From NCBI RefSeq assembly GCF_056712565.1, contig NZ_CM160072.1: a stretch of DNA of 64,000 nt. One strand, 5' to 3'. The translations under genes were made by a program, and so were the position numbers. Numbering within the stretch: the first letter of the stretch is position 1; the number at the start of each line of letters is the position of its first letter. Under the pieces are notes generated by a model, which saw nothing but the letters and a program-made list of their open reading frames with translations, made no database searches and was not told the DNA's origin. Positions 49,821 through 51,958 of this stretch are shown here, piece after piece.

Positions 49821-49965
49821 AGTAAATAGTGGGTTAAGAGAATTAGTGGAGGGAGACTTTATCGTTCTACATAAGATACCTTGCTTGAATATACTATAAA
49901 GCTCTTTTTTTGAGATTAATCTTGTTGTACTTTAATGTCTTCACCTCACTAATGGAGCTAATTTT

Positions 49966-51924
49966 ATGATAGTAGGGATTTTTTTAAGGTATTTTAAAAC
50001 ATACAACGGAAATCATTACATACCGTTATCTTCTGGAAGTCAGTTTTGTGGAATTGTTGGTAACAATGGAATTGGCAAAAGTTCTGTTCTTGAGGCTTTA
50101 GATTCGTTTATTAATAACAAACCATGGAATATTAATTCTTCATTTAAAAGAACCTCCAGTGACAGACCTTCTCCACATATTGTTCCTTTATATCTTATAA
50201 AGCGAGAGGAATTACATGAAGATCATCATGCTAAAGCTGAAATCTTAACGCAATTAGTATTAGAATATAGCAATAGTAATGCTGATGTTACATTGACGCC
50301 AACAACACGAAATATAATTAATACGTTTTTTGAACATATTAACAAATTAAAAAGAAATTTAAATCTCCAAGATTATTTTTTGATCCCTCTGGGTGTCGAG
50401 AAAGATGGTGATGTAAGTATTTCGATTCTTAATGGGAAGAGTTTATGTCGACTTTTGGAGGTTGATAATCCCGATAATAAAGTTTCGAGCGAGTTGCTTA
50501 GTAAGCACTTTGGGTATTTATTACATCATGTCCGCCATAAGTATGAATATATATATATTCCAAAGGATATAGACTCTGAATCGTTTACGAAGCTAGAAAC
50601 AAGTGAAGTACAAAAGTTGATGGGTGAGTCTTTAGAGCAGATAATTAAAGATAGAATATCTGATAGAACCATAAGTCAAATCAATACAGGGCTTGCCAAA
50701 TTTCTGGATGGTGTTGAAGAGGAGCTTGAAGAATATGGTTATAGAACATCTGGCGAGAGACAATCGCGATTAAAAAAGAAAGATGTTTATAATTTGATTA
50801 TCGAAGCATTCTTCAAAGTTAGGAAATTAAATAAAAAGCAGAATTCAGGTTGGATTGAAATTAGCTCGCTAAGTTCAGGGGAGAAGCAACGTGCAATAAT
50901 GGATATTGCATATGGGTTTCTTACCAATCATAGAGAAAATGGCGATAATCTGATTATTGGAATTGATGAGCCAGAATGTTCTCTTCATATGTCTGCATGT
51001 TTTGAACAATTTGAAAAGCTCTATTCTATTAGTGGTATATGTGAACAATTAATATTTACTTCACATTGGTATGGCTATCTTCCAACCGTCGAAAATGGAT
51101 GTACCACAACTATCCTTAAAACAGATTCAACTCATCATTTTGAATTATATGATCTTGCCAGTTATAGAGAAGAAGTCAGGAAGAAAGTAAAAACCTCTTC
51201 CCCGGGTATGCCATTTGATATAAAAATAAAAAGTGTAAATGACCTTATACAATCCATAATATCTAGCTGTTTGGCTGAGAAACCTTACAATTGGTTGATT
51301 TGTGAGGGTACTACAGAAAAAATATATCTTTCGCATTATCTAAAGGACTTGGTAGAAAATAAAAGGCTAAGGATTGTGCCTGTAGGGGGAGCTAGTGAAG
51401 TTAAAAAAATATTTAAGCATTTAGAAGCTTCTTATGAAGAGTTCAAAAAAGACCTCAAAGGAAAAGTGTTCTTACTAACCGATACAGATTCAGAGTTGGT
51501 GTCATATGATACCCCAGTTATGCCGCATGTTGTTTGTAAGCGAATTGTTAGTGTAGGTGATTCAGTGAAGTTGGTTGATATTTCTTCCAATCCAGTTTCT
51601 CCTGCAACAGAAATAGAGGATTGTCTTAATCCTGTATCGTTTATAGAGGCTTTAACATCATTTTCTTCACGTTTTCCTGAGCTTCAGGCATTGCTGCCTA
51701 ATAGTAATGTTATGATAGATGAAAGACATTCATCGTTTGCTGCGATGGATTTGTCACCCAAGAACAAAAAAACGCTTGATGCTTTTTTTGACCGTGAAGG
51801 AATTAAGTTTGATTTTTCAAAGGAATATATTTCAATCTGTGAGCGAAATGAGCGGAAAAGGCCAGAGTGGATTGCCAAAATTGAAAATTTTTTTATAAGT
51901 GATAAACCTGTAAAGTTTAATTGA
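49966..51924 (+). CDS. OLD-family nuclease (ABC-type ATPase plus C-terminal TOPRIM), single-gene
   Basis: 652 aa; Walker A GIVGNNGIGKSS; ABC signature-like SSLSSGEKQ; Walker B LIIGIDEPE; H-loop FTSHW; TOPRIM Glu in LICEGTTEK and DxD in LLTDTDSE about 55 residues later; about 30% GC. Confidence 0.8.
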   Translation: MIVGIFLRYFKTYNGNHYIPLSSGSQFCGIVGNNGIGKSSVLEALDSFINNKPWNINSSFKRTSSDRPSPHIVPLYLIKREELHEDHHAKAEILTQLVLEYSNSNADVTLTPTTRNIINTFFEHINKLKRNLNLQDYFLIPLGVEKDGDVSISILNGKSLCRLLEVDNPDNKVSSELLSKHFGYLLHHVRHKYEYIYIPKDIDSESFTKLETSEVQKLMGESLEQIIKDRISDRTISQINTGLAKFLDGVEEELEEYGYRTSGERQSRLKKKDVYNLIIEAFFKVRKLNKKQNSGWIEISSLSSGEKQRAIMDIAYGFLTNHRENGDNLIIGIDEPECSLHMSACFEQFEKLYSISGICEQLIFTSHWYGYLPTVENGCTTTILKTDSTHHFELYDLASYREEVRKKVKTSSPGMPFDIKIKSVNDLIQSIISSCLAEKPYNWLICEGTTEKIYLSHYLKDLVENKRLRIVPVGGASEVKKIFKHLEASYEEFKKDLKGKVFLLTDTDSELVSYDTPVMPHVVCKRIVSVGDSVKLVDISSNPVSPATEIEDCLNPVSFIEALTSFSSRFPELQALLPNSNVMIDERHSSFAAMDLSPKNKKTLDAFFDREGIKFDFSKEYISICERNERKRPEWIAKIENFFISDKPVKFN

Positions 51925-51931
51925 TAAATGG

Positions 51932-51958
51932 TCGCAGGGGAAACCCTGCGATATTCTA
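51932..51958 (+). terminator. stem-loop terminator after the OLD-like gene
   Basis: TCGCAGGG-gaaa-CCCTGCGA then a T-rich tail. Confidence 0.5.

Follow-up and report, generated by a model that had tools for sequence, protein, structure and literature searches.

A stand-alone OLD-family ATPase–TOPRIM protein, probably a phage defense enzyme, in a mobile cassette of an Escherichia coli P2-like prophage

Introduction

OLD proteins are divided into classes mostly by their genomic context (PMC10568477). P2 Old rests as a tetramer that opens to give an active tRNase, and it senses aberrant DNA or hairpins of single-stranded DNA at the origin of the phage (PMC12445682; bioRxiv 10.64898/2026.07.10.737580). 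The Vibrio cholerae protein (Vc OLD) alone defends against several phages independently of RecBCD and nicks DNA (PMC12392090). The retron-Eco8 OLD effector (class 3) cuts double-stranded DNA only within the retron holocomplex (PMC12887533), and AriB of PARIS, a proposed class 4 OLD system, cuts tRNA once Ocr is sensed (PMC11464382). OLD/TOPRIM effectors may thus cut tRNA rather than DNA (PMC12445682; PMC11464382). Only P2 Old, Vc OLD, and YbjD have so far been examined as lone OLD proteins, and broad self-sufficient defense by a lone OLD protein has been named an open question of the field (PMC10568477). Here we analyzed a 64,000-nt stretch of DNA (contig NZ_CM160072.1 of assembly GCF_056712565.1; hereafter, the window), in which a P2/186-like prophage carries, between the tail genes S and V, a single gene for a 652-aa protein annotated as an "AAA family ATPase" (WP_000635034.1). 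The protein is almost certainly an OLD-family ATPase–TOPRIM enzyme. We consider it likely that this enzyme acts on its own, travels in a mobile prophage cassette, and protects the lysogen against other phages.

Results

Domain architecture and conserved residues

The open reading frame (ORF) at 49966–51924 on the plus strand (1959 nt, 652 aa) has an ATG start codon with GGAG 9 nt upstream. It is not a chance ORF, because it extends over 1959 nt in AT-rich DNA and has 685 relatives. The initial annotation had described an ABC-type ATPase followed by a TOPRIM domain, and all of the motifs that it quoted were found in the translation in the same order: GIVGNNGIGKSS (Walker A, aa 29–40), SSLSSGEKQ (signature, aa 300–308), IGIDEPE (Walker B, aa 331–337), FTSHW (H-loop, aa 364–368), CEG (aa 446–448), and DTD (aa 506–508). 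Pfam assigned AAA_15 to aa 7–367 (2e-17) and OLD-like_TOPRIM to aa 443–508 (2e-5). The ABC-type ATPase domain (aa 1–405; 49966–51180, plus strand) has helical insertions and contains K38 of Walker A, Q216, S303–G305 of the signature, D334/E335 of Walker B, and H367 of the H-loop. The TOPRIM nuclease core (aa 440–555; 51283–51630, plus strand) contains E447, D/E451, D506, D508, T548, and E551, with a β-hairpin insert at about aa 515–540. It is followed by a C-terminal helical region (aa 556–652; 51631–51921, plus strand), delimited from the secondary structure of models, which carries K614.

We examined these positions in 84 relatives with 28–73% identity to the protein. K38, S303, D334, E335, H367, E447, D/E451, D506, D508, E551, and K614 were invariant (84/84), and T548 was present in 76. 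The acidic residues of TOPRIM, on which the initial annotation had made its reading depend, are therefore all in place in motif order. The metal sites were mapped using the motif order given in PMC7049728 and not by superposition; on this basis, E447, D/E451, D506, D508, T548, and E551 would form the two TOPRIM metal sites, with E447 and the DxD pair D506/D508 as the metal A triad and the acidic residue four positions past E447, T548, and E551 as the ligands of metal B. K614 is a candidate counterpart of K562 of the Burkholderia OLD protein (Bp OLD), the catalytic lysine of the class 2 OLD helical domain (PMC6755086).

Structural and profile comparisons

When the PDB was searched by sequence, using the protein or the family and C-terminal profiles as queries, only ATPase motifs were matched and no TOPRIM domain, so that structure prediction was needed. 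An AlphaFold model built on the family alignment had a pLDDT (predicted local distance difference test) of 92. When the full-length model was compared with the PDB by Foldseek, the retron-Eco8 OLD effector (8e-15) headed the ranking and was followed by GajA (6e-14), both with alignments of about 670–720 columns; the best matches were thus full-length OLD nucleases and not a non-nuclease ABC ATPase. The ATPase fold matched SMC/Rad50 and OLD heads. In regards to the C-terminal domain alone, the best structural match was the class 2 OLD C-terminal region of Burkholderia (6nk8; 9.6), followed by Retron Ec67 (9.3), AriB (8.2), Thermus OLD (6.9), and GajA (6.5), while generic Rossmann-like folds gave values of 6 or less.

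The family profile was aligned with P2 Old by hhalign at a probability of 97% (E = 1e-10, 246 columns). The alignment was colinear from the signature motif through the first TOPRIM strands and thus spanned the ATPase–TOPRIM junction. Pairwise BLAST against P2 Old aligned the ATPase motifs only (30% identity over 79 aa). These results, together with the Pfam assignments and the model, support the architecture of P2 Old and GajA that the initial annotation had proposed for the 652-aa protein. The likeness holds at the level of profile and fold only: identity to P2 Old and GajA is 13–15%, and the size and C-terminal structure do not fit class 1.

Among PADLOC models (version 2.0.0), partial matches included ATPase-Toprim_I-B and GajA. 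The GajA match of the window protein covers the Walker A stretch only, and the GajA matches of other family members are also partial.

The protein could instead be a fused PARIS, with AriA and AriB in one chain, in which the ATPase would sense anti-restriction proteins such as Ocr and the freed TOPRIM domain would cut a host tRNA and thereby stop translation. PARIS systems are frequent in P2/P4 hotspots and are known in fused form as well (PMC9122126). Moreover, a relative at the A–Q site (L025) agrees at every position with the 399 residues that Table S5B of Rousset et al. (2022) gives for system #164, where it is listed as "AAA_15/AAA_21/DUF4435" with 11 occurrences and described as similar to fused PARIS. 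However, current Pfam did not list DUF4435 for the window protein or the #164 relative, nor was it among the families listed for the 84 family members; OLD-like_TOPRIM was found instead, in 27 of the 84 at E ≤ 1e-3 and in 63 at E ≤ 0.1. The top PDB sequence match was AriA (E = 4.6e-8), but this match is limited to the stretch from the signature to Walker B. The PADLOC AriAB profile gave 31–39 bits over part of the sequence in the window protein and in the four other members that matched it, and hhalign of the C-terminal profile against AriB was not significant (E = 0.11), in contrast to the probability of 97% for P2 Old. Furthermore, DxD and the acidic motif that follows it are 43 aa apart in this protein, compared with about 24 aa for AriB and 47–51 aa for OLD proteins. 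We therefore rejected assignment to PARIS and regard a fused PARIS as unlikely; some uncertainty stays because older Pfam annotation labeled a relative DUF4435.

The top PADLOC match, "AriA", was also rejected as evidence of PARIS. The profiles concerned (PDLC02979 and PDLC02980) appear to be relabeled generic Pfam profiles: set against AAA_15 and AAA_21, their lengths are 373 versus 374, and 304, and their match coordinates are nearly the same. This match therefore indicates an ABC-type AAA_15 ATPase only.

Family breadth and distribution

A search of a large protein database gave 685 relatives, and about 250 clusters at 50% identity were found with E < 1e-30. The family is discrete, with members of about 640–660 aa conserved over their full length down to about 28% identity, and is widespread in Proteobacteria. 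DUF2813, which matched P2 Old strongly in older Pfam, was found in only 3 of the 84 members at E ≤ 1e-3.

The window corresponds to the E. coli SF-468 chromosome (NZ_CP012625.1), with which the 2.5-kb query shares 100% identity. Among 5426 complete E. coli genomes, 13 carry the S–V variant and 10 the A–Q variant, whereas the adjacent V end of the query has matches in 824. Carriers include strains of the extraintestinal pathogenic (ExPEC) and avian pathogenic (APEC) types. In 12 of these 13 E. coli carriers of the S–V variant, the annotation shows one intact gene. In NZ_CP087287.1 (strain APEC 16-1068), the gene is annotated as two "AAA family ATPase" coding sequences, and this copy is probably disrupted by a frameshift. 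The variants found in relatives between cI and int and downstream of int had no megablast match in complete E. coli genomes, which indicates that they live in other hosts.

A one-gene cassette in several hotspots

The prophage extends from about 30.9 kb to the end of the window and is inserted between rcdA and ybjL. The cargo island at the S–V junction (49733–52098, 2.4 kb, strand unspecified) was delimited by its composition and by blastn against another E. coli P2-like prophage (L010), which carries a DUF6216 gene and a hypothetical gene at this site. Outside the island the two prophages are 88–94% homologous; on the left the homology stops at 49732, and the right limit is the start codon of V. 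The island contains exactly one ORF. The initial annotation had placed the feature at 49850–51958, a range that covers the gene and its 3′ hairpin but is narrower than the island. It had also given a GC (guanine plus cytosine) content of about 30% against a backbone of roughly 50%. The island is indeed AT-rich, but both the gene and the island have 33.7% GC, and the backbone has 50–54%, locally up to 60%. The horizontal acquisition that it proposed is supported.

Gene S (49383–49820, plus strand), which encodes the tail completion protein, is the last gene of the late O operon; it was assigned from RefSeq (NZ_CP012625.1, "phage virion morphogenesis protein"), S-protein alignment, and the end of the L010 homology. 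Gene V (52100–52678, plus strand), for the spike or "baseplate assembly protein V", opens the next late operon. The left junction falls within S, whose last 88 nt or so (49733–49820, about 29 codons) are variable. S proteins diverge past an LLGF motif, and their final 15–18 residues differ in every P2-like phage compared. Each cargo thus brings its own S terminus, since the left junction lies within the S coding sequence.

We then examined the contexts of relatives in Halopseudomonas, Sulfurimonas, Atlantibacter, Enterobacter, Pantoea, metagenomes, and about 35 IMG/VR loci. Across about 40 contexts, there was no conserved neighbor other than phage backbone genes and no conserved antitoxin-like neighbor, in agreement with the view that the gene works without a partner. 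These results indicate that the gene moves as a one-gene cassette. A chromosomal Pantoea copy (75% identity) stands alone between the phn operon and a channel gene.

Mapping of backbone genes in P2-like prophages assigned the copies to four sites. The S–V site holds copies encoding proteins with 100% (L001/L013), 91% (L014/L015), 59% (L016), and 33% (L028) identity to the window protein. The A–Q site, adjoining the portal gene Q, is the old/tin site and holds copies with 46–47% identity (L020, L022, and L025). Copies with 31–33% identity (L032, L038, and others) lie between cI and int, co-oriented with both, and those with 58% identity (L017 and L018) lie directly downstream of int. From 186-type gene organization, the cI–int copies are probably transcribed with the repressor in the lysogen. 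The gene had been described as lying away from the classical position of old. This is the case in the window prophage but not in the relatives at A–Q, and others occupy the two sites near int. P2 itself carries a different gene, orf30, on the opposite strand at the S–V site, as had been stated. Hotspots among the late genes of P2-like phages had already been described (bioRxiv 10.64898/2026.02.27.708500), so that the S–V location itself is not new.

Two further neighborhoods were observed. In Atlantibacter hermannii (L004/L005, 1428–5963), a 58%-identical homologue lies in an integrative island that also encodes, 2 kb upstream of it, a SIR2_2 protein of 864 aa; between the two is a cI-like repressor and, in L004, an integrase as well. 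This is a defense-type neighborhood outside a complete prophage. In metagenome contigs (L059/L060, 42–2376, minus strand), a member with 36% identity lies 2.5 kb from a pair of genes for a reverse transcriptase (RT) and an AAA ATPase on the other strand, and an unannotated 447-aa ORF is directly upstream and co-oriented. The RT and ATPase pair suggests a retron-like, defense-island neighborhood and looks like a separate system.

Expression signals around the gene

The upstream cassette region (49821–49965, plus strand) contains the ribosome-binding site GGAG at 49954–49957. Partial conservation with the chromosomal copy of Pantoea and with other prophage copies extends over about 60 nt beside the start codon. 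A terminator scan found no intrinsic terminator between S and the gene, so that read-through from the late operon is possible. Directly past the stop codon is a GC-rich 9-bp hairpin with a GAAA loop (51931–51952, plus strand; RNA fold, z = -3.1), which recurs behind the 91%-identical gene in L015. It is followed by a tandem repeat, CTAACCT × 6.9 (51959–52006, plus strand; TRF). A small, terminator-like hairpin and T-run (51998–52021, plus strand), detected by the terminator scan and RNA folding, probably mark the end of the cassette transcript.

The matched stretch in the 13 E. coli carriers ranged from 2494 to 2522 bp in steps of multiples of 7 bp. Although the repeat itself was not read there, these lengths suggest that the CTAACCT copy number is variable. 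In L015, a different repeat (CTGCCT, about 14 copies, 6020–6104) occupies the equivalent place behind the same hairpin. A TGT-N12-ACA motif (52035–52052, plus strand) is present at the same place in L010 and L015. By analogy with P2 and its annotation, it is expected to be the Ogr/Delta-type late-activator site of the promoter pV upstream of V. Rfam gave no match in 49300–52500 at E ≤ 0.1, and neither Rfam nor a tRNA scan found anything in the island or the prophage.

Other variable loci of the prophage

The A–Q hotspot of the window prophage is occupied by a gene for an S1-family peptidase (39972–41062, plus strand) and a small hypothetical ORF (39102–39527, minus strand). The two gave nearly full-length matches to PDC-M35A/B, a candidate system of PADLOC (E = 4.5e-94 and 4.3e-58), and therefore represent a second putative defense cargo in the same prophage. 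In addition, the region at about 56561–57998 contains a recombinase-family (DNA invertase) gene, two oppositely oriented tail-fiber assembly genes, and a truncated ORF. It looks like an invertible tail-fiber (host-range) switch at the place where P2 has Z/fun.

Discussion

Proposed function and mechanism

The architecture, the invariant catalytic residues, and the repeated occurrence as a lone cargo gene describe an OLD-family enzyme, for which, by homology and location, defense of the lysogen would be the most likely role. The activity that the initial annotation had proposed, that of an anti-phage or anti-plasmid nuclease, is likewise putative. Precedents for its mechanism are available (PMC7049728, PMC6755086, PMC12392090, PMC12445682, and bioRxiv 10.64898/2026.07.10.737580). 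By analogy with them, the N-terminal SMC/Rad50-like ABC ATPase may serve as sensor and switch for the fused C-terminal two-metal TOPRIM nuclease. The protein at rest would be an inactive oligomer. An infection cue, which may be a phage protein or a DNA structure that is abnormal or replicating, would engage the ATPase, and the TOPRIM site would then be exposed when ATP is bound or hydrolyzed or when the oligomeric state changes. This site would cut either DNA of the phage or the host, the substrate of GajA, Vc OLD, and Burkholderia OLD, or a host tRNA, the substrate of P2 Old and PARIS AriB. Phage replication would thereby be halted, possibly at the cost of the infected cell. As a rough judgment, we give DNA about half of our confidence, tRNA a smaller but substantial share, and any other substrate a minor one. 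The slight tilt to DNA reflects the best structural match, a DNase module that is processive and has a lysine in its helical domain.

Several points count against this proposal. Matches to sigma-70 promoters upstream of the gene were weak, with none above chance in the promoter scan and none called, so that expression in the lysogen can only be presumed. The literature searched contained no experimental data on any member of the subfamily, no publication naming WP_000635034, and no report of any test of system #164. A tblastn search of the 50,697 deposited phage genomes of INPHARED gave no match. PADLOC, one of the tools suggested for checking the initial annotation, gave generic or partial matches only, of which that to Old had 41 bits over aa 319–487. 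The placement of T548 and E551 at metal B, and of K614 as the catalytic lysine, follows from motif order and conservation. Finally, an archaeal OLD ATPase (Cran1) acts in the cell cycle and not in defense (PMC12796447), so that the architecture alone is no proof of a defense role.

Slightly less probable than a fused PARIS is that the gene has no role in defense and is a prophage factor for DNA metabolism or maintenance (SMC/RecF/RecN-like or Cran1-like), or a hitch-hiking selfish toxin of the addiction type. Roles outside defense are documented for OLD ATPases (PMC12796447), and the S–V gene, which is co-oriented with the late operons and not separated from S by a terminator, may be expressed during lytic growth of the phage. 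NCBIfam and PHROGs searches returned motif-level matches or families without assigned function, including weak NCBIfam matches to RecF/SMC motifs. However, the SMC/Rad50 likeness is confined to the ATPase head, with no long coiled coil, and the residues of the nuclease do not vary. P2-like phages can do without the gene, to judge from its 13 carriers against 824 genomes that match the V end. Moreover, its sites are interchangeable cargo sites, copies are also present outside phages, and no antitoxin-like neighbor is conserved.

It is highly improbable that the protein is an orphaned effector, either GajA without GajB or a retron OLD effector without its RT and noncoding RNA, that is inactive alone or decaying: its closest full-length structures and partial PADLOC matches point to such effectors, but the island has no helicase gene, RT gene, or Rfam family, none is conserved beside relatives, the family is full-length with catalytic residues invariant down to 28% identity, which is unexpected for decaying orphans, and the annotation shows a single, intact gene in all but one of the 13 E. 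coli carriers.

The reading of a lone OLD-family defense enzyme can be extended further, although we hold the extended form to be speculative and rather improbable. The family might be a distinct fifth OLD lineage, in which a single chain combines a class-2-like nuclease with its own sensor ATPase and shuttles among at least four hotspots. The S–V copy would also be made in lytic growth and could then act on co-infecting phages or P4-type satellites, beyond guarding the lysogen, with a trigger that may be unlike RecBCD status, Ocr, or nucleotide depletion.

What is new here is the OLD branch; one relative was already listed as a candidate in 2022. The subfamily has a compact size (2 kb), is invisible to the PADLOC models used, and lies outside the length filter of class 1 surveys. 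Its class 1 context and class-2-like nuclease could reveal how ATPase and TOPRIM are coupled without a helicase, RT, or second subunit, and the subfamily could show what determines the choice between DNA and tRNA substrates. The four hotspots provide a natural example of defense cargo shuttling inside one phage family. The gene is a further candidate in E. coli prophage immunity and could affect phage therapy and phage typing.

Comparison with known OLD systems

The protein has the general features of the OLD family: an N-terminal ABC ATPase, an OLD-type TOPRIM domain, and homology to P2 Old. Like P2 Old, the class 1 archetype and an abortive tRNase encoded by a prophage, it unites ABC ATPase and TOPRIM in the product of one gene, which a P2-type prophage carries as non-essential cargo, and its relatives occupy the A–Q site where old lies. 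In contrast, P2 Old has 586 aa and lacks the extra C-terminal helical region of the 652-aa protein, the window gene is at S–V, and at A–Q the relative runs in the direction of gene A but old in that of Q. Vc OLD and E. coli YbjD/OldB, which were compared by description only, share the single-gene context and the two conserved catalytic domains but are about 500–600 aa long. In regards to class 1 as a whole, the single-gene context agrees, but the size of 500–600 aa and the TOPRIM domain without a C-terminal helical domain, as seen in Thermus OLD, do not. Class 1 analyses used a length filter of 500–600 aa (PMC12392090), which places the 652-aa family outside the survey.

Class 2 OLD and GajA (6NK8; Bacillus cereus GajA) share the TOPRIM domain followed by a lysine-bearing helical region and a similar overall size, but identity is 13–17%. 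Membership of class 2 or Gabija was rejected: the downstream neighbor is phage gene V, and neither the window gene nor the relatives examined adjoin a UvrD-like helicase (GajB). Membership of class 3 or retron type I-B was likewise rejected, as the island has no RT ORF and no Rfam match; the retron-Eco8 effector is also longer (about 740 aa) and 13–14% identical, and the window gene has neither an RT gene nor a retron noncoding RNA beside it. With PARIS, the protein shares the ABC ATPase and TOPRIM logic and the status of P2/P4 hotspot cargo. These comparisons place the protein in a branch of the OLD family whose class features are mixed, in which a class 1 context is combined with a class-2-like helical tail in a chain of 652 aa.

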